Below the pieces are notes generated by a model. It saw only the letters and a list, made by a program, of their open reading frames with translations. It had not been told where the DNA came from and ran no database searches. This document shows positions 3,895 to 63,730 of a stretch of 64,000 bases of DNA, one piece after another (positions within the stretch are counted from its first letter, which is position 1; each line of letters opens with the position of its first letter). The translations under genes were made by a program, and so were the position numbers. This DNA comes from Candidatus Poribacteria bacterium (GTDB lineage Bacteria > Poribacteria > WGA-4E > JAJDTR01), in contig CBDCTK010000002.1 in the NCBI GenBank assembly GCA_965222225.1, positions 1,600,001-1,664,000 of the forward strand. Direction: 5' to 3'.

Positions 3895-4040
3895 CGATTA
3901 CCAGCCATCTGATTAGTAATTTGGTACGTAGGCTGAACTTACCCCCATCCTTTAGACAGCTATGAAGGAGATTTAAGTAATAAAATCCGACTAATTGTGG
4001 TCCGATTTCAACGCCTGAAGTTATTGGAAATACACCTCGT

Positions 4041-4078
4041 GGGTATCTCTACCGCACTCGCTATCCGCTCGCTTGCTG
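4041..4078 (-). repeat. Mini-element unit inserted in IS3 orfB C-terminus
   Basis: Reverse complement CAGCAAGCGAGCGGATAGCGAGTGCGGTAGAGATACCC matches the family consensus. Replacing it with 3 nt restores ...YRTP-HEVYFQ*. Confidence 0.8.
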
Positions 4079-4344
4079 GTGTACGGTAGTCGAGCGATTG
4101 ATGGAGTCGCTCTTGGTTATAAAAGTTGAAATAGTCTCTCAATCGACGATGAGTTGTGTTCATTGAGTCATAGTCGTTGAGATAGACCTCCTCGTACTTG
4201 ACGCTGCGCCAAAGCCGCTCAATGAAGATGTTGTCAAAATAGCTGCCTCTGCCGTCCCAACTGATGGCAATGTTATAGGCTTCAAGTCTACCAGTAAACG
4301 CGTCAGAAGTAAATTGACTTCCTTGGTCGTTGTTGAATATCAAC

Positions 4345-4381
4345 GATCAAGTGACCGAATAGCGAGCGCGATAGAGATCCG
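4345..4381 (+). repeat. Mini-element unit inserted in IS3 orfB
   Basis: GATCAAGTGACCGAATAGCGAGCGCGATAGAGATCCG. A net +34 nt explains the frameshift between ORFs 4303..4776 and 4008..4343. Confidence 0.85.
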
Positions 4382-5548
4382 CTTGATTGACTAAGGGCTC
4401 GTTCCAGAGCCGACAGACAAAAGAATACGTCAAGTGAGTTGGAAAGTTCCCATGACAACACGTAACGGGAAAACCAATCCATTACTGCTACCAGATAAAC
4501 GTAACCATTGCTCAAGTGAATATAGGTTATATCAGTTGCCCAGACGTGATTCGGTCTGTTGATACTTAATTCCGTCAGCAGATAAGGGTACATTTTCGAC
4601 GGTTTGCCCATACCGGAGGTCTTGGGCTTGGGATAGATGGCAGCTAATCCCATCTTTCGCATTAATCTTGCTACCCGTTTCGGATTGACGACATATCCTT
4701 GGGAACGAAGCCATTTCGTTAATTTAGGCAGCCCGTAGAACGGTGTCTTGGTGTACTGCTCATCTAACAGACTCATATAGAGCAGGTTTTGTGGCTACTC
4801 TGTTGCAGGACGATAATAGTATGAGGCTCTGGACAAGCCTAAAAGCTCGCATTGTCTCACAACCGACAATGAACGGCACTCCTGTTCAACAAGCTGCCGT
4901 TTGTGTTCAACGGAGGCGTTGAGGTTTTTTTTGAAGCCAGTCCAGTTCTACCTTCAACTGATCAATCTGGCGATAGAGATCTGCCACTAACTCGTCATTG
5001 TCAGAGACCATTTTTGAGCGCCCGTTGGTAAACAGTTGAGGTAATTCCTCAAGAACCTGTTTTTTTCATAGGCTGACTTGCGCTGGATTAACACCGTATT
5101 CACTGGCAATCTGAGCGGTAGTTTGCTGATTCTTAATGGCTTCAAGAGCCACTTGTGCTTTGAATCGGCCATCGTGCTGTTTTCTGTGGGACATGGTGGA
5201 GAAACTCCTTTCTTTTTCTTGGCGTTTCCGAGCCATATTTTCGCCCAGATGATGACCATTTTGCCAGTCGGAATGATCTCTTATTCAACTGTCTAGTTTT
5301 TGGGGGTAATTGCACCTTGCATGCGGAGCAGCGAGTTTGAGTTTAAAACGCCAGCGCATGATGTCCGACAATTAAGCTGCTTCAGCACATTCAAAGGTTC
5401 CTAGCGGAGCAATCCCTTATACGGATTCTTTGCTCCGCGAAGATAATCTTCAATTTGTAATCAAAGATTGCTGTCACAAGCTAGGTTGGTAAGGTCCTTT
5501 ATGGTTTCCGATTGAAATACTCAGCCATTTTTAGTAGGCTTATATTCC

Positions 5549-9458: not shown

Positions 9459-10043
9459 ATGCCAAAGCGTTCTCGCCACCAGATTATCGCCATTATAACG
9501 TTCGTTTTTGGGCTTGGATTTCTGTATCAGCCCAATTCTGTATTACTCAAGGGTATTGCCTTACCGCTTTTGACCATTACATCGATTTTATCAGCAAGTT
9601 GTTTTTCTGCCAAGTGGGTCGTGGAGATTATTGCAGGTCTTGGGCTAATTACTGGAATGGGGTTCCTGTTTGTGAATGTTCCAGGTGCTCTTCGCGGTTC
9701 CGCTTTCCACCTAATCTATGCTAGCGCAATCGCTTTTAGCATGACAACACGCTGGCGAAAGCAGATGGCAATTCTCGGCGGAACTATCCTAGTCATCGGC
9801 TTTGTTTTCCTCTATCAGCCTCTTAGTTTTCTGCGGAGCACAGCTCTCTATCTTATCCTATTAGGTATGACTTTGTTTGCAATTCTTGCGAGGCGAAAAT
9901 GGTGGGTGGAACGGATTTCCATCAGTACGATTGCATGCGGTCTTATCTTTCTCTGTCAACCGTTTCAGGAGATACTTTACCAGACAGGTTTTCAAATCCT
10001 ACTCGGCGGTTTAACTGGATTTGTTATTGTTGCCCATCGATAG
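9459..10043 (+). CDS. Hypothetical integral membrane protein
   Basis: Multiple hydrophobic helices; recurring FLYQP/FLCQP motif suggests internal repetition. Confidence 0.75.
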   Translation: MPKRSRHQIIAIITFVFGLGFLYQPNSVLLKGIALPLLTITSILSASCFSAKWVVEIIAGLGLITGMGFLFVNVPGALRGSAFHLIYASAIAFSMTTRWRKQMAILGGTILVIGFVFLYQPLSFLRSTALYLILLGMTLFAILARRKWWVERISISTIACGLIFLCQPFQEILYQTGFQILLGGLTGFVIVAHR

Positions 10044-10059
10044 AGAAAGTCTCTATGTT

Positions 10060-11223
10060 CTAAATTTCCTCAATTTGCTTTTGCCTTAACCAGATACTCG
10101 TTTCCACTACGCTACAAACGCCAATCACCACGGCACAAAGAATGTACGGACTGTTAACTCCTAGTCCTGAATCCGCCAATACCCCACCGAAAAATGGTCC
10201 AAGCAATAAGCCACTTCCCAGAACAGCTTCGTGGCCACCACTCTTGTTGCCCTTATCCGGCTGTGCATGCAAACTATAATACATGCTGCTGAAGTAAGTA
10301 ACAGCTCCAGATAGACCAATTACCGCGAAGGCACACGTCCAATAAAATCCATGTGGCATAAGTCCGATTGCCAAGAAGGCGATTATTGCGAGTAACTGGG
10401 CGCCAATCAACGGGGACAATCGATAATGCCACCGTGCGGCTTGATTTGTGCCTAACCATAGGAAGCCAATCAGTTGTGTTGCTCCCAACACCAGTATTAA
10501 ATTTCCATAAGCTATTGCGGGAATGCCGGCCTCGACTGTCAGTTTCGGCGCGATATGTCGAACGATTCCGAGCGAAAACCATGAAGCAAAGTTAGCAATC
10601 CGCGCTATTTTTAGATGGATGTGGTGTGCAGTATGAGGAGGCGCTTCAATTAAAACAGGGTGTTCCGGCGAACGTAGGTCTTTACGATTTGCGATTATTT
10701 GAGATTCAAGAGTAATCCAATTGATTAGACTAAATCCGCCCGCGAAATAGAAAGCAAGGACTGGGCTGGTTCCTTGATAAAGATAACTGGAAATCATCGG
10801 ACCAATTGTAATCCCAACGGTCCAGAACAGATTAAAGGTCGTAATGCGTCCAATCAAATCTCCTGCACCTTCTCGTTCAGCTAGCCACGCTTCATAGGTG
10901 GGCCAAAAAAGTGCCATACCGATACCACTGCACGGAAAAACTATCATGAGATATAGCTTGCGCGTACAGAATGGGAGCAGAATACTTACGGCGGCGAGTG
11001 TAAGGCAGGCAATGGTGAGGACGCGAAGTCGTCCAACCCTATCTGAAAGACGGCCAAACGGAATTGCTAGTAGCACGAAGACGCCCGTGCTGATTGCGGT
11101 CAGAATGCCTAGAAACGTAGAAGAAAAGTGGAGGTAGTTTATGAAAAAAGCGGCGTTCGTAAGGATACTACTGATGCTAGCATCCATTAGAAGCGCAGGG
11201 AGATATGCACCGTACTTGCGCAT
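10060..11223 (-). CDS. MFS transporter
   Basis: GRLSDRVGR motif A and about 12 TM segments. Confidence 0.9.
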   Translation of the reverse strand: MRKYGAYLPALLMDASISSILTNAAFFINYLHFSSTFLGILTAISTGVFVLLAIPFGRLSDRVGRLRVLTIACLTLAAVSILLPFCTRKLYLMIVFPCSGIGMALFWPTYEAWLAEREGAGDLIGRITTFNLFWTVGITIGPMISSYLYQGTSPVLAFYFAGGFSLINWITLESQIIANRKDLRSPEHPVLIEAPPHTAHHIHLKIARIANFASWFSLGIVRHIAPKLTVEAGIPAIAYGNLILVLGATQLIGFLWLGTNQAARWHYRLSPLIGAQLLAIIAFLAIGLMPHGFYWTCAFAVIGLSGAVTYFSSMYYSLHAQPDKGNKSGGHEAVLGSGLLLGPFFGGVLADSGLGVNSPYILCAVVIGVCSVVETSIWLRQKQIEEI

Positions 11224-11526
11224 GAATGTTTGTTATCTTCGCATGAGATAGGTCCGGCCGCCAATCACACCCCATCTGGGGATTCCCATTAGCTCGATTC
11301 TGTGCTTTTAAGACGAATAACAGGCGGTGAAAATCGAACGTTAAAGATTAGCAGGTGAGATTTTGATTATCCAGTTTTCTTGATTGACCATTGAAGAAGT
11401 TGCCGAACGTTTATGACCGGTTGGAGAGAGTTGGAATAGGCTTTGCAATATGTCAAGAAATCGCTAGTCATTAAGCGGGTATGCTTCCCTATAGGCCAGT
11501 AATGTACAAAGTCAAGCCTAGTCACT

Positions 11527-35079: not shown

Positions 35080-36326
35080 GGAATTAGTAGCTTGTAGCTT
35101 TTAGACTGACGACAAACATAAAACTTGGTACCCTGTCGTAAATCTTTTCGTCACACGTAGATGTCCATAGTGACTATTCTTCTCGTAGGAGTTTGCTATG
35201 GACATTTTGAATCTTATGAAAGAGTTTCCAAATCAAGAATCTTGTCTCAGATTTATAGAGGAAAAACGTTGGAAGGACGGTGTTTGCTGTATCCACTGTG
35301 GCAGTGAAAAAGTTGGACGCAAGAACAAAAACGACATTACTACTGGTTGGAATTGCTACGATTGTGAATCTAGCTTTTCGGCTACAGCAGGAACCATCTT
35401 CCATGGTACCAAGATACCTCTCCAGAAATGGTTTTTGGCTATCTCAATTCTTTCCAATGCCAAGAAAAGCATATCGAGTTGTCAGCTTGCTCGTGACTTG
35501 GACATGAATCAAAAGTCCGCTTGGTATATGGCAATGCGCCTCCGTGAGAAAATGAGTGATAGTGATGAATTGCTGAAAGGGATAGTTGAAGCGGACGAAA
35601 CCTATGTCGGCGGCAAACCCAGAGCAAAATCTAAGAGAGGTAGAGGCACAAATAAATCTCCCGTCATCGGCGTAGTCGAGAGAGGCGGTCGGGTGGTTGC
35701 TAAATTCATGAAGGTTCTATCTGGTGAAAATATCAGAGAATTCATCCTTAGCAATGTCTCACCCGATGAGTCTATTCTTATGACTGATGAATTTCGCTCT
35801 TACAATAGTCTGGACGAAGATATCGAAAGACATGTTATCCATCACCAAGAGAGATATGTTTCTGAGGACGGCGTAACTCACACCAACACCATCGAGTCGT
35901 TTTGGGCTTGTGTCAAGAGGTCATTCTACGGAACGCATCATCACTACAGCAAGAAGTGGCTGCCACTGTATATCATGGAGTCTTGCTGGAAATATAATCG
36001 CAGAAAAGATGATGAGATTTTCATAAGATTTTTTGATGAATGCTTCACCTGAGCCACATGAATTGTTTGGCTATCGGTATATTCTGTCAACGACAACATC
36101 ATGGTGTGCTGAAAATCCCATAGTGTTGGAAATTAAAATCCCGCAGATAACCCGCAATGCTCCCGCGAGCATGTACAAACGCTTGGTCAACATGATATGC
36201 CTCCATTTCTCTCTTATAGAGATGTATTTTAGTGTGAATCAAGATTCCGAACACTGTCTAAAGTTATTGTACATTAAGAAGAGAAAAGCAAGCAAATCGA
36301 CCAAAAAGCAGTTAACTACTAAGTCC
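35080..36326 (+). mobile_element. IS1595-family insertion sequence (ends tentative)
   Basis: Imperfect IR: GGAATTAGTAGCTTGTAGCTTTT versus reverse complement GGACTTAGTAGTTAACTGCTTTT around the transposase. No clear target duplication. Confidence 0.55.
35198..36052 (+). CDS. IS1595-family transposase
   Basis: Zn ribbon (CIHC, CYDC), GTIFHGTK, VEADETYVGG, MTDE and HTNTIESFW motifs. Confidence 0.93.
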   Translation: MDILNLMKEFPNQESCLRFIEEKRWKDGVCCIHCGSEKVGRKNKNDITTGWNCYDCESSFSATAGTIFHGTKIPLQKWFLAISILSNAKKSISSCQLARDLDMNQKSAWYMAMRLREKMSDSDELLKGIVEADETYVGGKPRAKSKRGRGTNKSPVIGVVERGGRVVAKFMKVLSGENIREFILSNVSPDESILMTDEFRSYNSLDEDIERHVIHHQERYVSEDGVTHTNTIESFWACVKRSFYGTHHHYSKKWLPLYIMESCWKYNRRKDDEIFIRFFDECFT

Positions 36327-42576: not shown

Positions 42577-43620
42577 TAGGAGTTACGCAGTTGGCTGAAG
42601 CGTATAAAGAGGTTGTGCCAAATAAGCCCGTACCGCATCTCTGACAATAGAGAGTTTTGCATCAAACCAACTGATACCGGTATGATAGCAATAGTGCTCA
42701 ATTCTCAGAAAGGCTCTCAGCGCTAAACCGATATGATTTCTTTGAGTGCGAGCAGAGCGCACTTGTGCGCGTTCAATGCCAACAAATTGCTTAATCCCGC
42801 GATGATATTCTTCTATTGTCCAAGACCATTCGGCATATTTGAGACGCGTCAATTCGTCCATCTGTAAATCATTCGTTGCCCAATATTCAATGTCACCTTC
42901 TGGAGTGTCAACCTTAAATACTCGAATCAATCCATAGCCTTTGAGATGGACAATTGTACCTGTTGATTCACTCGGAAGCGTACTCACCGGACGGTTACCG
43001 GAATAATCTTTACTGACAAGTCGGTTGGCAGCTAGACGAGTAAGCCACTTCCAACCATGACCTCGCACCGCTTTTAGATTCTTTAGACTGGCATACCAAC
43101 TATCAAAACACACACATTCAGGAGCAAAACCGCGTGTTTTCGCTTCTTCAAGCATGGCGCGGAAATGCTCATTCTTCGTCAAGCCGTCTTTGGCTTTATC
43201 ATAGATTCGATAATCACACGGAATATGTCTATCGCCATCCGTCCGGAGCAAAGTGACCAAGTTAATCCCATTCACAACTCGGTGGTGTTTCCCTGACCAG
43301 TGTTTTGTCACGAGTTCAATCTTTTGTGAATAAGGTTTATCCAGAGTCGAGTCATCTATAACTAAAATTCCGGATTCTAATTTCACCTGATTTCTCGATT
43401 CTTGCCACAGTTTGCCAGTATCGGGTTCCTCTCGATGCAAGAGCCGTGTTATCGAATCGTGAGCCGGAGGATTATCAGCTTGGGGTTGAACTTTTTCCGA
43501 TTCAAGACAACTGTAACTTTTCTGAGCGGCTACCAAGAAATCAATATAGTCAGTGTCAGTATATTTAGGGGGATTCATACTCAAATTATAACCTATTTTC
43601 ACTCAACTGCGTAACTCCTA
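42577..43620 (-). mobile_element. IS701-family insertion sequence, apparently intact
   Basis: Perfect 17-bp IR TAGGAGTTACGCAGTTG and 5-bp direct repeat TGTAT at 42572-42576 and 43621-43625. Confidence 0.93.
42583..43578 (-). CDS. IS701-family DDE transposase
   Basis: LVIDDSTLDK, FDSWYAS and WTIEEYHRGIKQ motifs; uninterrupted ORF. Confidence 0.92.
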   Translation of the reverse strand: MNPPKYTDTDYIDFLVAAQKSYSCLESEKVQPQADNPPAHDSITRLLHREEPDTGKLWQESRNQVKLESGILVIDDSTLDKPYSQKIELVTKHWSGKHHRVVNGINLVTLLRTDGDRHIPCDYRIYDKAKDGLTKNEHFRAMLEEAKTRGFAPECVCFDSWYASLKNLKAVRGHGWKWLTRLAANRLVSKDYSGNRPVSTLPSESTGTIVHLKGYGLIRVFKVDTPEGDIEYWATNDLQMDELTRLKYAEWSWTIEEYHRGIKQFVGIERAQVRSARTQRNHIGLALRAFLRIEHYCYHTGISWFDAKLSIVRDAVRAYLAQPLYTLQPTA

Positions 43621-47820: not shown

Positions 47821-49793
47821 TTAAATCCAAAAGATCGAGTTTCCCTTTTGTCCTGTCAATAGATCAATCAAGATCCAGAAACCGTTACACGTGAACTGCC
47901 CCAGGATCAAACCGAGAAACAAGGGACGTGCTCTTCGATAACCACCAAGACCTGCATATTTGAGGATACACGCCTTGATTAACCACGCGAGAAAAACGGT
48001 AAACCAGAGTCGATCCATCAGCCAAATTGGACCAATGACAAATCCGATCGGGTGGAGGGGCCACCAGAGAAACTGCGAGCGCAAGAACATCAGCAACCCC
48101 ATAATCGTCCCACCGATTCCCTGAATCCACCAGCCGAGCCAATTTACGTCCGGTGGCGACATGAGTAGTGTAACAATGTAGTTATATGGCGCCTTCGCGC
48201 CGCCGCCGAAAAACCATCCATTACCGTTAAGCCCACCATGCTTATACGACAACCAAAGCAACACACAGATTGACGAAATCATGCTAACAATTATGGATAG
48301 CATTATCGCCCAGAACAACGGGCGTTTGTTTCGGTCTGAATCGTCAACTACTTTCAATCCGTTTGCAGCAGATGCCATCACGAATATCCGCACATCGGCT
48401 GACCACACGTAAGTAAGCGCCATGCCGGCAACACCGGTGGCTCCCAATCGATTCGCCCCAAAACCCGAGATGACAAAGGAAGATCCTATTGTTGAAGCAA
48501 CTGCGACCGCCATTCCGCTTTCGACGACAATCCGCGTCAACCCAATGAAAATTACAAATACAGCAAACAGGAAAACCGCGACCATCAGAGCGGGGATGCC
48601 GCTGGCGTTTAACCAGATCCCCATAAAAACCAGTCCAAGAAGCATACCCCAGACAGATGCGCGGTAGGAAAGTATTTCGTCGGAATCATTGATGGTTTGC
48701 TTATTAAACAGCGCTTTACGCACAACCGCTTTTAGGTGGGCTTTTGCCGACCAAACCCCGCTACAACGAGCACAATCATGGCGCCCATCCCCAGGTGTTT
48801 GAAAAGCGGGGAAGGTGAACCGTAGATGCCCAAATTTTCAGTTACTCGATACCCGAAATACGCCATGCCGCCGCGTACCATCAAGCTGAGCAGATTAAAG
48901 AACCACATGCTGAAGGCGACATCCGGGTTCACCAGATAGCAAAAACCGAGCATGGGAAAACTGAATCGGAAGAACAGCGTCTCGGTGTTCTTGAAGATTG
49001 GGATGCTTTGTTCTAACTCTAAATGCGGGATGGCGGGATTGTAGAAGTGAAATCCTTTCAGGCTGGCTATAAGAAAAGCGATGCCGAAACCCAACCACAT
49101 GATTCGGTTTTTGAACAGGGGACTAAACACTGACTGTCCCCTTGGCGCTGCCATCTCCATCGGCAGTTGCGCAAGTGGATAGACAAGCCTCTCATGTTCC
49201 ATCCACTGTCGGCGCAGGATGACCATCATAGAGATCATCACCAAGTAAAGTGCCATGGCGAAACTTCCCCATACCAGCAGTGGCTTAATCCAGATCACCC
49301 AAGGAATTCCGTCTTCCCAACTCGGGAGCCCTTCGTAGAAGTATTTGATGCCTAGATTACTTTGTGGTGTCAGCCACGGTTTGATGTGTGGCTGGATCAA
49401 TTCCGCCCAGTTGTTTTCAGGCGTGGCAAAGTAGAATGGTGCGGTTATGATTGGCAGCAATTGTGCGCTGTAGCCCATCGTCGGAATGGCGCAGGCGACA
49501 ACCAGCATCATATAAACCCCTCTTAATTCCGTAACTGAGAGTGCGAAGCGGGAGTTCACGCGCCCAACGACAGCATTGATGATAAAAGTCAGGACAAAGA
49601 AAACAAAGATTGCCGCCGCAGTGCTGAAATCAATCGCCATGTAGGAGCCGTGAATCACCATAATGTTATAGGTAGTTCCGACACCGACAACCAATGAACC
49701 GACTACACCAACAGTGACGGCGCGGAATGTGCACGGGTTAGGGTCATGAGATAATTCAGAAGAGGGAACAGCAGGTTGGGGCGGCTTGTTCAT
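47821..49793 (-). pseudogene. Large polytopic membrane protein (DUF6785/DUF6784-like) split by a frameshift near 48755
   Basis: RRQWMEHERLVYPL, WWPLHPIG and KYAG...FLGLILG motifs. ORFs 48732..49832 and 47821..48723 join as ...WSAKAHLKAVVRKA with one added base. Confidence 0.75.
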
Positions 49794-50182
49794 GGCGATA
49801 CTGAGCGTAGCACAAATCGTAACTCCTGTCAAGATGCCAAAATCCTATACAATCCTTCTGTTTCTGTGAAATCTGTCAGAACCCCACGCCAACCAAATGC
49901 ATGGGATCGACCCATGAGAAAACCAAAGAATCGGGTAGGTGTTCGGCTCTTTAGAAGGTGTTGCACAAACATGTCCCAATCTCCTCTCAAGCCAAGCTCA
50001 AGATTCGAAGGCGATTCCCCTGTATAACCGATAGAATTTGCTTGTGCTTCTATAGCGAATGGGTTATCATCTCCCTAAGATGTAAAGTTGATTATCCGGA
50101 ATGAATCGCTGCAATTTCTGAGTAACTGTTTCTCCCAATTTTGGCACAAAAAACTTACATTCCCCATTAAGGAACCAAGGCT

Positions 50183-54098: not shown

Positions 54099-54566
54099 TC
54101 ACCGAGGGAGTCGCCGCACCCATAGCGCCAACGCCAAATTCATCCCGCCGACGAACCCGAAAACATACGATTGAAACCCCGCCAAGATGCCGTAGGTTTG
54201 CCGAATCATTAATCCAAAGAGTATCGGCATACCGAGTGCGAGCATCACAAAAATGGTTGTACCTTTCGCCCCCCTCGCATCCCAAAATGTAATCTCTCGT
54301 GCCAAGACTCGCATGTAATCTCGTTCCCACATTCGTGTCGTCCATTTTCCCTGTATGAAACCGAGAACCACCCCCGCGGCGAAGCCGACGCCACACCAAC
54401 TCGTGTCGACGCGACTTAGATTGACGGCGGCAGTCCATGCAATCTGACCTACCACCGAAACCACGATGAAGGAGACCAAAATCGGAAGTTGCATGTAAAA
54501 GGGTAGGTGGCGGCGGTGAAGTTTTTCTGGTTGATTTGCCGCTTTTTTCCTTAACGAGAGTTCCAC
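54099..54566 (-). CDS. Hypothetical four-TM membrane protein
   Basis: GTG start with AAAGGA RBS and four hydrophobic segments. Confidence 0.7.
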   Translation of the reverse strand: MELSLRKKAANQPEKLHRRHLPFYMQLPILVSFIVVSVVGQIAWTAAVNLSRVDTSWCGVGFAAGVVLGFIQGKWTTRMWERDYMRVLAREITFWDARGAKGTTIFVMLALGMPILFGLMIRQTYGILAGFQSYVFGFVGGMNLALALWVRRLPR

Positions 54567-54685
54567 TTTCCGTCCTTTCACAAGACAGAGGGAAATGATG
54601 CGTAATGCGTGAAATGTGAAAAATGTGTAGTGGTCAAGTAGAATACAGCAGACCACTCGAAACTCTTGGCTTTTGCGCTCCGGAG

Positions 54686-54842
54686 GATTAAAGGAGCGAA
54701 CGGATCAAGCGAGATCAAATGAGCGAATAGCGATCAACTGAGTGGATAGCGAAAGAGCAACTGACCGATAGGGAAGGCGGTAGAGATCCCATAGCAAATC
54801 CCATAGTGAGGGCGATAGTAAATCCCGTCCGATAGAGATCCC
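54686..54842 (+). repeat. Nested cluster of mini-element units
   Basis: Left ends at 54703, 54713, 54732 and 54755 (degenerate one at 54686); right ends ..ATCCC at 54790, 54802, 54826 and 54842. Confidence 0.85.
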
Positions 54843-55078
54843 GACATGAATCGGGAGAAGCAAGTTGGTAATGGTCAATAGATAACGCAAACCCGCCTTG
54901 AAACCGATTCTTTATTGATAGGCGCTGTCGGTCCGCAGTACCGGCACAATGTGTCAACCATCTCCTTGACTAATACAGAAGTGCGAAAAGAGGCTAGCTT
55001 CGGAAAGGAAATAGCGTGTGCTATTTCAAGCCGGAACACGTAGTCGTTTGAGATTTGCAAGTCTATCAACCCTCAGTC

Positions 55079-55864
55079 CTACGAAAAGTTTTGCTGAACG
55101 AAAGCAACAGCATTCTGAAAAATGTCAAATCCGTCCCCTTTCTCGGGGAGATTTTCGCGTGTCCAGTGCGGATGGTTTAGCCGTGTGAGAAAACGTTCCG
55201 GGTGAGGCATCATACCAAAGATTCGACCAGTGGGGTCGCAGATGCCAGCGATTTGAAGATCGGATCCATTTGGATTATCGGGATACAAAGGGGACTCTCC
55301 ATCCGGAGCCACATAGCGAAACACCACTTGCCGATTAGATTCAAGCCGATCTAGAATCTGATTAGGTGCTGTGAAACGTCCTTCGGCATGAGCAATTGGG
55401 AGATAAATCCTGCGCTTTAGCCCATGCGTGAAAGCACAGGAAGTTTCCTGTGTTTCCAAGTACACCCATCGGCATTCAAACTTAGCGGAGGTATTCAAAG
55501 CTAAAGTTGCTTCTTGTTCGATTTGCGCGTTGAGTCCCGGAAGTAGACCAGCCCGGACCAACACTTGAAATCCGTTGCAGATTCCGATGATTAGTTTCCC
55601 CGAATCAACGAAATCTCTTAGGACATTCCCGAGTTTGTGTTTTATCTCATTCGCCAGCAGTATCCCCGCCGCGACATCGTCGCCGTAAGAGAATCCGCCA
55701 GGGATGGCGAGGATGTGATACCCGTTCAGATCTGTACGACCTGAAATTAGTCGATTGATGTGAATCAGCGCTGTCTCCGCGCCAGCAAGTTGAAAGGCGT
55801 ATTCGGTTTCGTAATCGCAGTTAGTGCCTGCCGTGCGAAGGACTAAAACTTTTCGTGCCAACAT
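55079..55864 (-). CDS. purQ: FGAM synthase glutaminase subunit PurQ
   Basis: GTNCD, PGGFSYGD, GICNGFQ and MMPHPER motifs. Confidence 0.96.
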   Translation of the reverse strand: MLARKVLVLRTAGTNCDYETEYAFQLAGAETALIHINRLISGRTDLNGYHILAIPGGFSYGDDVAAGILLANEIKHKLGNVLRDFVDSGKLIIGICNGFQVLVRAGLLPGLNAQIEQEATLALNTSAKFECRWVYLETQETSCAFTHGLKRRIYLPIAHAEGRFTAPNQILDRLESNRQVVFRYVAPDGESPLYPDNPNGSDLQIAGICDPTGRIFGMMPHPERFLTRLNHPHWTRENLPEKGDGFDIFQNAVAFVQQNFS

Positions 55865-59138: not shown

Positions 59139-59225
59139 GAGAAACCGAACGGATAGTGAGAGATCGAGCGACTGTAAAAGGAGAGCGATAATGTCCCATA
59201 GAAATTCCCGTGCGATAGAGACCCA
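59139..59225 (+). repeat. Degenerate nested cluster of mini-element units
   Basis: Inner unit 59162-59197 sits inside host halves 59139-59161 and 59198-59209; an extra right half lies at 59210-59225. Confidence 0.7.
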
Positions 59226-59497: not shown

Positions 59498-60490
59498 ACC
59501 AATGGTGCTAGTTTGAAATTTGGAGGTTAATAAGCATAACATTCCCTTTTGGCTTTGCTTTAACGCGAAAGGTATCAGGGCATGAGACGATTTCCTCGAT
59601 TCTACCGTTAATTTGAGTATCGGTAGCTATCAAATAACGGGAGGAAATCTAGACTCATGACCATAGTAGATTTTATCACAGAACTGTTTTGTTGTGTTGA
59701 TGATAAACTCTCACAGCACGGTAAAAACCATAAGCATAGCCAAGCCAAACTTTATCCGTCTGAAGTGGTTACCATTGCCATGCTCTTTGCGCTCAAGGGT
59801 GTGGGTAATCGAGCCTCCTATCGCTGGATAGCGAACAATTTCAAATCCTTATTTCCGATGTTACCCGAGCGTACCCGATTGTTCCGCTTATTCGACGGGC
59901 ATCAACATCTCATTGACGTTTTTATGGCGAATCCTTCGCTTATCGGTGGAATTGACACGTACGGTATTGAATTGATTCACCCGCGCCGAGAAGGGCGCTC
60001 TAAACGTCAAATCGGACGCAAAGGCATTTCCAACCAACGATGGATTGTAGGTGGAAAACTTTGCTTGCTACACAATCATCTCGGACTGATTGTCAACTGG
60101 GACTGCGACACTGCCAATGTACATGATGGGAGTGCCTTCCAACATCTCGTTGATGGGGTCAGTGACCAGATGGTTGTTTTGCCGATGTAAATTTCGCCAA
60201 AGCGGATTGGTTCCCTTCCAACTTGCGTCTGTGCCGACGTGGCGAGTGGAATTCTCGGATGCTGCGAGTGGAATTCTCGGATGCTGGTAGAAACGATTTT
60301 GTCCATGTTGACGCTAGTGTGCCATTTTAAGAAAGTCATGCACCGTCGTTGGAGTTACTTCAAAACGCGAGTCGGCTTTACAATGGCTTTGGTCAATCTC
60401 TTGGTACAGTGGAATGGATTGTCGATTGACGACGATGGCTTTGTGCCTCTGTCAATAGCTCAATTCAGTCTCTAAACTAGCACCAAAGGT
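59498..60490 (+). mobile_element. IS982-like insertion sequence
   Basis: IR ACCAATGGTGCTAGTTT versus reverse complement ACCTTTGGTGCTAGTTT, 5-bp direct repeat TAATA, 993 bp long. Confidence 0.8.
59657..60475 (+). pseudogene. IS982-like DDE transposase pseudogene
   Basis: LFCCVDD, KLYPSEVVT, IDT, ANVHD and VET motifs; -1 frameshift near 60180 and a 22-bp tandem duplication at 60242-60285. Confidence 0.8.
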
Positions 60491-61887: not shown

Positions 61888-62117
61888 GTCGGCAATTGGA
61901 GTTCCCCCTCACGGTAGGAGCGATCTCCGAATCGCGACTTGTCGCAAATTGGAATTTCCTCCTACGGTAGGTGCGATCAAGCGAACGATCAACTGAGTGG
62001 ATAGCGAAGGCGATAGCAAATCCCATAGTGACGGGATCGAGCGACTGAATAACGACCGCGATAGAGATCTCAAGGCGATGGAGATCCCATAGAGAATCCA
62101 TTTCTAACCGCACCTAC
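61888..62117. repeat. Cluster of GTAG-type REP-like sequences, the last interrupted by mini-elements
   Basis: Alternating copies at 61888-61912 (-), 61914-61938 (+) and 61941-61965 (-), plus GTAGGTGC[...]AACCGCACCTAC at 61967-62117. Confidence 0.75.
61975..62100 (+). repeat. Nested cluster of mini-element units
   Basis: Complete units at 61987-62024 and 62035-62071 within an outer unit; extra right half at 62072-62088. Confidence 0.85.
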
Positions 62118-63048: not shown

Positions 63049-63078
63049 ATCCTCCGGTTATGATTTCTCGGTAGGAGC

Positions 63079-63149
63079 GATCAAGCGAGCGAATAGATCA
63101 AGTGACCGAACAGGGAACGCGATAGAGATCCCAGTGCGATAGAGATCTC
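63079..63149 (+). repeat. Two nested mini-element units inside a REP-like hairpin
   Basis: Inner unit at 63096-63132; outer halves at 63079-63095 and 63133-63149; flanks GTAGGAGC and CTTGCCCCGCC. Confidence 0.85.
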
Positions 63150-63730
63150 CTTGCCCCGCCGTACTACACCAAAATTCATGTGAAACCCAACACGTCATCT
63201 GCGTGGTACTGGAAACCGCCAGCGACTTTTTTCACAGGTCAACCAAAAAGACCAGATAGTTAAAATCTCCCCCGCTTTTCTTCAACGCTTGATTGACACC
63301 GTTTGTTATGCCGCTTAAATGTACAAAGTCGAGCTAATTATTGGAGTGCGAAACCGGTTGGCTACAGTTATCTAGGCATCAACGATGACATCGTTTGGGA
63401 CATCATCCAAACAGATATTCCGGTCCTGTTGCCTGCCTTAAGAAACCTACTAAGCACAATCAACAAGGAATCCCCATAACAATAGGAGAGGATACCAATG
63501 GCATTATTACCACCAAAATACCTCAACGCAGTAGTTGCAATAGGCATAGAATCCACTCCAGAGGAAATAGAATCAACTGGGCAGCCGAAGCACCGTTTGC
63601 ACCGTGCCCCGAACTGAGCGATAGACGTCCCAATACCCCGGGCGCGCCATAAAGCCTCCTAGTTATACCGTGAACTCCCGATGATCGACCTTCGCTTCGA
63701 TAGAGCGCCCGTCGACCGGGGCAACCGGGT

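Follow-up and report, generated by a model that had tools for sequence, protein, structure and literature searches.

The DNA analysed here is a window of 64,000 nt from contig CBDCTK010000002.1 of a Candidatus Poribacteria bacterium, and all position numbers refer to this whole window. Between purQ (55079-55864) and a gene for a hypothetical protein (54099-54566) whose named homologues come from Ca. Poribacteria, both on the minus strand, lies a nested stack of 37-38 nt repeat units (54686-54842). The stack consists of five left ends, followed by four right ends, around an intact 36-nt unit at 54755-54790. This arrangement had been described in a first-pass annotation of the sequence, and all of its coordinates were verified. 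In the layer directly around the innermost unit, positions 54732-54754 correspond, with one substitution, to the first 23 nt of a copy at 61987-62024, and positions 54791-54802 are identical to its last 12 nt (62013-62024). The GCG that the host carried between these two halves has been exchanged for the 36-nt unit, again as annotated. The two copies, which had been presented as an empty-versus-filled pair, are of the same unit type; however, they are paralogues and do not represent two states of a single locus, and another unit, inside a GTAG REP, is host to the "intact" copy. A strict pattern for the unit matches three times in the window, versus 0.00 in 100 shuffles, and its left half-motif is present 8 times and its right half-motif 9 times, versus 0.33 each in 30 triplet shuffles. 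With its five left ends, the cluster ranks among the top 4 of 371 clusters by this count.

A scan of GTDB genomes, using a pattern in which the stems and the loop are free, detects the unit at at least 121 loci in at least 10 genomes. All 121 loci among the matches listed belong to Ca. Poribacteria (10 genomes); phage and plasmid collections yield only chance matches. Together, the listed loci and the window provide 177 strict copies (three from the window; 110 distinct) and a relaxed set of 324 intact units (256 distinct), for which reversed-sequence controls gave 0. Counted with the final base, 317 of the 324 relaxed units are 37 or 38 nt long. A unit has a fixed head (GATC followed by two purines), a hairpin in which two pairs, a tandem G.A and two further pairs are capped by a G-N-R-N-A loop, and a fixed tail that ends in CCC. 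The GATC is present in 269 of the 324 units, and a 2-nt spacer separates it from the hairpin. Columns 7-23, 8-22, 11-19 and 12-18 of the unit pair in 103, 100, 104 and 106 of the 110 distinct copies, respectively, whereas shuffles reach at most 80, 77, 70 and 99. G and A close the loop in 108 of the 110, and its third base is a purine in 159 of 175. The letters of the stem vary freely provided that pairing is kept: in an alignment of 73 copies, made up of 70 of 122 distinct stems pre-filtered for pairing plus the three from the window, 94% of stem cells pair, versus 23-55% with slid partners. The tandem G.A was fixed by the search pattern, and its conservation is no independent result. Because G.T wobbles are common and A.C rare, the purine-rich strand must be the one that folds.

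Standard energy models, which score a tandem G.A poorly, fail to predict this hairpin, and Rfam 15 gives 0 matches at the gathering threshold in the window, with only chance-level similarity in 54600-54950. Two additional helices, one closing the unit between its two GATC motifs and the other a second hairpin at columns 24-28/33-37, display no two-sided change and are unproven; a 3' end templated by the upstream flank was also considered, and no covariation was seen. Some units begin with AATC instead of GATC (at L038, L069, L012, L022 and other listed loci), as do 10 of 27 units counted in one genome and 5 of 14 in a second. The tetranucleotide GATC as such is under-represented, with an observed/expected ratio of 0.57 in the window and 0.66 in the listed loci, which is possibly an effect of methylation or restriction. 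A subfamily with an AGC head and a G at column 27 includes the units at 4042-4078 and 54755-54790 as well as copies at L002, L021, L058, L085 and L099.

With these columns, the focal stack can be read layer by layer on the plus strand. At its left edge, positions 54675-54685 are the left remnant of a host, a small CTCC-loop-GGAG palindrome of a REP-like family that often serves as unit host in the listed loci; it is cut at the start of the first unit. The left halves that follow belong to unit 1 (columns 1-17, 54686-54702), unit 2 (columns 1-10, 54703-54712), unit 3 (columns 1-19, 54713-54731) and the split unit described above, which is unit 5 of a six-unit parse (columns 1-23, 54732-54754; the single mismatch is to 61987-62009). 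Insertion after columns 17, 10 and 19 recurs in 16, 3 and 5, respectively, of 85 nests, each of the five column-19 nests having lost 2 nt. Downstream of the innermost unit, a 36-nt variant with a 4-nt loop (54755-54790), are the right half of the split unit (54791-54802), a segment comprising columns 15-38 (54803-54826) and a right half that begins at column 22 (54827-54842). At 24 of 24 positions the segment at 54803-54826 agrees with the 3' portion of an intact unit type found in L038 and L066; at these two loci, from two other genomes, that type has split its host at column 18 or 19. In the preferred parse it is the right part of unit 4, which has lost a 12-nt left part, and the predicted 12-nt prefix precedes the same inner unit type in L041. 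The last right half resumes at the same point as all five column-19 nests; both of its surviving arm pairs fit unit 3 (A-T and T.G), while one of two fits unit 1. If 54803-54826 is instead assigned to unit 2 and 54827-54842 to unit 1, one of the two arm pairs is broken in each. Joining 54713-54731 to 54827-54842 is the better parse because both arm pairs hold and the join matches five of five column-19 nests.

Judged from its paralogues, as the listed loci include no ortholog of it, the stack most likely held six units originally. Slippage between two direct repeats of 7 nt probably removed the 12-nt prefix of unit 4, and units 1 and 2 would have lost their right halves together with the rest of the host REP. 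The first-pass annotation counted four to five elements and allowed that one left half may lack its right half. The nesting and the incomplete outer layers stand; however, six units, from which two right halves and one left half are gone, give the better parse. (Nests were scored by prefix and suffix, and a greedy automatic parser misplaced the outer layers of this cluster.) At both 54675-54855 and 63071-63165, the left and right flanks look like different REP-like families, which suggests that neighbouring repeats become fused by deletions with an endpoint at a unit.

Six clusters of the unit lie in the window. Two single units, inserted independently and in opposite orientations, break an IS3-family transposase gene (4021-4776, minus strand). 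One, at 4345-4380 on the plus strand, adds a net 34 nt, and the other, a variant with a 5' CAGC near the end of the gene (4042-4078, minus strand), adds a net 35 nt; each shifts the reading frame. Thus, single unit insertions can knock out genes. The search by its design yields intact homologues; of the 38 best, 35 have an uninterrupted first site (the pattern did not locate it in the other 3), and the closest homologues also read through the second. With net gains of 34 and 35 nt, and with a proline codon at the first site that is not recoverable, bases must have been replaced. A 31-nt element flanked by a GATC target-site duplication was rejected, since the IS3 homologues require net gains of 34 and 35 nt and no empty twin of a unit (see below) reveals a duplication. 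The remaining clusters are on the plus strand. A degenerate nest at 59139-59224 has a host split at column 23, an inner unit at 59162-59197 and one extra right half. Positions 61914-61938 are an empty GTAG REP of one host family, a REP that also flanks a Y1 transposase gene in L061. At 61967-62114 a GTAG REP contains a four-unit cluster, with the host split at columns 12 and 23, inner units at 61987-62024 and 62035-62071, and one left half lost. At 63071-63149, the foot of a GTAG REP is followed by a clean two-layer nest, split at host column 17, whose inner unit (63096-63132) is a typical 37-nt copy. The window also contains other transposase genes, of the IS1595 family and two of the DDE_Tnp_1 type (35198-36052, 42583-43602 and 59657-60475, the last seemingly in pieces), a DUF6785/DUF6784 gene present as two ORFs (47821-49832) where the homologue in L067 is one ORF of 643 aa, and another dispersed repeat, an inverted pair of 111 nt (11288-11398 and 63228-63338) that is 75% complementary across 52 kb. 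No tRNA or tmRNA was found in it.

Nesting is common throughout the family. Both host halves of another unit surround 85 of the 324 intact units; a right part alone adjoins 37, a left part alone 20, and neither is present at 182. The nests lie after host column 10 (3), 12 (5), 17 (16), 18 (6), 19 (5) or 23 (45). Units are also targeted before column 1 and at one antisense site, where 20 units sit in the opposite strand of other units, all at one G. Two or three host bases were lost in 68 of the 85 nests, and 11 others give negative values, where extra layers confuse the score. The arms of the split host pair across the insert in 63 of 69 cells from 32 informative nests (mean 42 and maximum 53 in 5000 shuffles). 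Of 29 right remnants compared, 20 are a better fit to the outer left arm and 3 to the inner unit. Thus, the annotated nested insertion is borne out. At host column 23, in many loci, the usual loss is 2 host bases for 38-nt units and 3 for 37-nt units; all five column-19 inserts are 38-nt units. The letters of the stem were considered as a guide to the target, but their associations are mostly explicable by loss of nests with alike partners, a residue outside nests remaining.

Units cover only 6.3% of the non-coding bases in the listed loci, so self-targeting is several-fold enriched, in loci that were chosen for holding a unit. The proposal that the element is its own preferred target holds to the extent that 142 of the 324 intact units adjoin half of another unit, but REP palindromes host as many or more. 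Of 539 unit starts, a number that includes some false half-matches, 124 + 78 lie in REP palindromes, versus 147 in units. REP palindromes are therefore hit at least as often as the unit itself; within them most insertions are on the GTAG strand, 0-5 nt downstream of this tetranucleotide. In two palindromes whose two strands offer matching local contexts, the GTAG strand has 16 filled to 45 empty sites in one and 10 to 36 in the other, versus 1 to 45 in each on the opposite strand (pooled p 3e-6, from REP copies that are not fully independent, as blocks duplicate). In the same filled-to-empty terms, a third context gives 12 to 33 versus 2 to 25 (p 0.065) and a fourth no bias (2 to 17 versus 2 to 21); a fifth comparison, in a GCGGG context, was dropped because its control pattern matched another repeat family. 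The strand bias could be a plain sequence preference for the upstream TAG.

These palindromes are regarded as true REPs because the same families flank Y1 transposase genes. The listed loci (~1.3 Mb) contain five Y1-type candidate genes, four of which match Pfam PF01797, and two carry the motifs given for subclass 2.2 in PMC6006769. These RAYT-like genes (L005:9191-9700, L023:15228-15800, L023:17805-18281, L061:11530-12000 and L077:4605-5180) are of at least three kinds, each with its own REP family, and the literature searched holds no earlier report of such kinds in Poribacteria. Further repeat families, some of them hosts and some free of units, occur at L044, L056, L026, L066 and other loci; they include sites that end in GAAACC and a repeat that begins TTGTCTGAAC.

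An empty paralogue, or twin, is available for 83 of the 177 strict copies and reveals what each insertion replaced. The replaced stretch measures 1 nt in 2 cases, 2 nt in 17, 3 nt in 48, 4 nt in 10, 5 nt in 5 and 9 nt in 1. It starts with G in 79 of the 83, in 55 of the 56 with at most two flank mismatches, and in 43 of 49 distinct junction classes, compared with a background of 0.40. The base after the junction G is C in 50 of 85. A target duplication is absent in 83 of 83 twins; a rerun that admitted wider overlaps gave an apparent overlap of 7-8 nt in 2 of 85. The last base of the unit is T in 17 of 20 units that precede GA (6 genomes, several hosts) and in 54 of 227 that precede bases other than GA or CA. 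None of 247 empty REP copies bears an excision scar; 4 of them lack one base. Tandem blocks in L079, though nearly identical, show two differences of one whole unit, the first within a REP and the second within another unit. Whole-unit length polymorphism is therefore present, and the refuting condition set in the annotation, clusters better explained by slippage or tandem duplication and lacking such polymorphism, fails. Between genomes (16 alignments, 84-91% identity), shared clusters are conserved and entire REP blocks are gained or lost; a clean indel of a single unit is not seen there, as the blocks turn over as wholes. Orientation relative to flanking genes is unbiased (75 sense, 86 antisense), and GC skew was too noisy to assess a replichore bias. 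Thus, it is highly probable that the unit is a mobile, non-autonomous element that replaces 1-5 target bases, starting from a G, without duplication. At 37 bases, it is among the smallest mobile elements seen.

After insertion, stacks are edited. Agreement between the inner and the outer unit at columns 7-8 is found in 6 of 80 nests, compared with 19.7 expected, and lone halves are common beside the 324 intact units (20 prefix-only, 37 suffix-only). Adjacent head-to-tail units are identical in 9 of 28 pairs, versus 2.7% by chance, with runs of identical units at L030 (three), L044 (five), L076 (three) and L079 (three) and repeated right halves in L023. The depletion of like-like nests, together with the identical runs and the repeated halves, indicates that slippage prunes and expands stacks without creating them. 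It might be argued from the same runs and halves that slippage or tandem duplication of one local repeat makes the stacks by itself, without insertion. However, inner and outer units usually differ, right remnants fit the outer left arm better than the inner unit, and single units interrupt the IS3 gene and REPs. As the sole cause slippage is refuted, with hardly any probability left to it, and it remains a secondary process. The annotated view that the arrays record insertion order from the outside in holds only with a reservation: a stack is an edited record. A separate case is L025, where three tandem 330-nt blocks (minus strand, ~9670-10370) each carry a unit whose site and junctions agree between blocks. 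The stems in one block are different and compensated, and either independent re-insertion or conversion would account for the difference.

How the unit spreads is less certain than that it does. The preferred reading, which as a whole statement that includes the helper falls a little short of an even chance, is that a non-autonomous element of 37-38 nt copies itself to new sites, with its folded purine-rich strand as the moving intermediate. A protein encoded elsewhere would recognise the unit by its shape, and it would have to select the fold in each round because stems vary freely while pairing stays. The likeliest helper would be a REP-associated HUH (Y1) nuclease acting on single-stranded DNA. 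Host repair would then trim the target at the second junction. Stacks grow through repeated insertion, and slippage at the direct repeats that this creates later removes or multiplies halves. The REP-like anatomy of the unit (tetranucleotide, 2-nt spacer, mismatched hairpin) and its preference for the GTAG strand point to this class of nuclease, and the host REPs do flank Y1 transposase genes. TnpA-REP works on single strands, with the tetranucleotide determining where it cuts, and one such enzyme was redirected to G-initial sites by a guide with a terminal C (as outlined in PMC8266576); models of strand transfer and amplification are given in PMC3333891. Several observations stand against such a helper. 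None of the five Y1-type genes in ~1.3 Mb is directly flanked by units; they are flanked by other REPs, some of which carry units. Neither junction has the CT or CA site of known TnpA-REP enzymes, and C follows the junction G where the guide rule predicts A or T. HUH strand transfer is not known to involve a loss of target bases, whereas here 1-5 of them are lost; in addition, the 247 empty REPs lack scars. The 2+2 bp stem is far below the 7-20 bp described for REP stems (PMC6006769). A more specific version, for which the probability is low, sees the REP/RAYT system as parasitised by the unit. As a single-stranded substrate of 37 nt that brings its own guide, GATC, the unit would hijack the HUH nucleases associated with REPs and enter the feet of REPs through a so far undescribed replace-and-insert reaction. 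The GATC guide would also pair with the downstream target, which would explain the final T before GA, as TGA is complementary to unit columns 3-5. If true, the unit would be the smallest defined substrate for the spread of REP-type repeats and a natural tool for short insertions.

Rather doubtful, but the more serious of the other routes, is that a folded 37-nt RNA is copied by a reverse transcriptase at a nick (target-primed), in which case an offset second cut would account for the lost target bases and a one-base microhomology for the shared G of the 5' junction. Wobbles of the G.U type, a tandem G.A and a GNRA-like pentaloop are typical features of RNA, and all are found in the unit. Copying also fits the high stem diversity (256 distinct among 324), variation concentrated at the 3' end and the lack of excision scars, and an RNA route was reportedly proposed for the SDR repeats of Nostoc. 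On the other hand, a motif search by regular expression of the 1089 ORFs of the listed loci (~1.3 Mb of 10 genomes) found no reverse transcriptase, Rfam holds no match to the unit, orientation to flanking genes is unbiased, and RNA copying by itself leaves the GTAG-strand bias unexplained. Alternatively, no dedicated enzyme may be needed if a host polymerase stalls at hairpins, switches template to another unit and returns a few bases downstream, while gene conversion between units refreshes stems in place. A one-base microhomology and a small target loss, as at the unit junctions, are typical of template switching; the two stem types at one site in the L025 blocks and the dependence of the final base on the next target bases agree with it as well. 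Nevertheless, this route is improbable: the copies run their full length from a fixed start, it is the structure and not the sequence that is conserved, a sign that a protein selects the units in each round, and symmetrical palindromes are used strand-specifically. Very improbable is movement of the unit as a minimal module of a REP-targeting IS110-family recombinase or another transposase. IS110 elements do insert into REPs and can move small non-coding modules (according to PMC12288879), but 37 bp would be too short for a double-stranded circle, the target bases appear to be lost rather than recombined at a fixed core, and 66 locus proteins that were scanned include no IS110 match.

Whatever its helper, the unit is a test case for how repeats of less than 50 nt spread in bacterial genomes, since its ends are exact, its fold is proven by covariation, its insertion follows a strand rule and leaves a junction signature (a G and the loss of 2-3 bases without duplication), and the same genomes encode candidate enzymes. 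Its stacks, in addition, hold an internal chronology of insertions and slippage. The REP literature consulted terms the pathway of spread poorly understood.

Among known systems, the unit resembles GTAG REPs, REPINs and BIMEs, which are associated with TnpA-REP (RAYT), in its tetranucleotide, 2-nt spacer and hairpin, its single-strand polarity, its high copy number and its clusters; insertion of REPINs into REPINs has been noted (PMC3116915). However, a GTAG REP has a GT[AG]G tetranucleotide 0-2 nt before the hairpin and a fully paired basal stem of 7-20 nt (PMC6006769), whereas the unit has a GATC head, a stem of 2+2 bp around the tandem G.A and a fixed 14-nt tail. Unlike REPINs, it forms no inverted doublets. 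A cognate flanked transposase was not found in ~1.3 Mb, and here the REP is the target. With non-autonomous derivatives of IS200/IS605 it shares a guide-like tetranucleotide 5' of a hairpin, strand specificity and the absence of a target duplication, but it has one hairpin, no fixed 4-5 nt target (only the G is shared), a loss of 1-5 target bases and no excision scars. Recombination of IS110 elements takes place at a defined core. Like the REP-targeting elements of this family and their modules (ISPpu9, ssr9), the unit inserts into REPs, and IS110 elements have small non-coding passengers; however, they are much longer and use circular double-stranded intermediates (PMC12288879). Bacterial MITEs such as RUP, NEMIS, ERIC and Nezha are likewise non-autonomous, small and intergenic. 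They measure 70-300 bp, have terminal inverted repeats of 15-30 bp (PMC3733652) and duplicate their target site, in contrast to a unit of 37-38 nt with only the 4-nt GATC near each end and no duplication in any of 83 twins. Thus, by the features tested, the unit is not a REP, a MITE or an IS200/IS605 derivative, and the literature searched, which lacked most subscription journals, contains no description of the family.

The closest likeness is to the SDR1-8 repeats of Nostocaceae, said to have been described by Elhai and colleagues in 2008, which reportedly measure 21-27 nt, keep their structure through compensatory changes and are nested in their own copies and in other small repeats. The Poribacteria unit, too, is tiny, non-coding and dispersed, has a compensatory structure and is nested in its own copies and in other repeats. 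It differs in length (37-38 versus 21-27 nt), in phylum (Poribacteria for 121 of 121 listed loci) and in its strand-specific use of REPs, a comparison made with SDR repeats by description and not by sequence. SDR5 inserts precisely into HIP1, whereas the Poribacteria unit replaces target bases; SDR-like elements are reported only in Nostocaceae (PMC4390886, PMC5861425). The unit extends SDR-like nested mini-elements to a second phylum.
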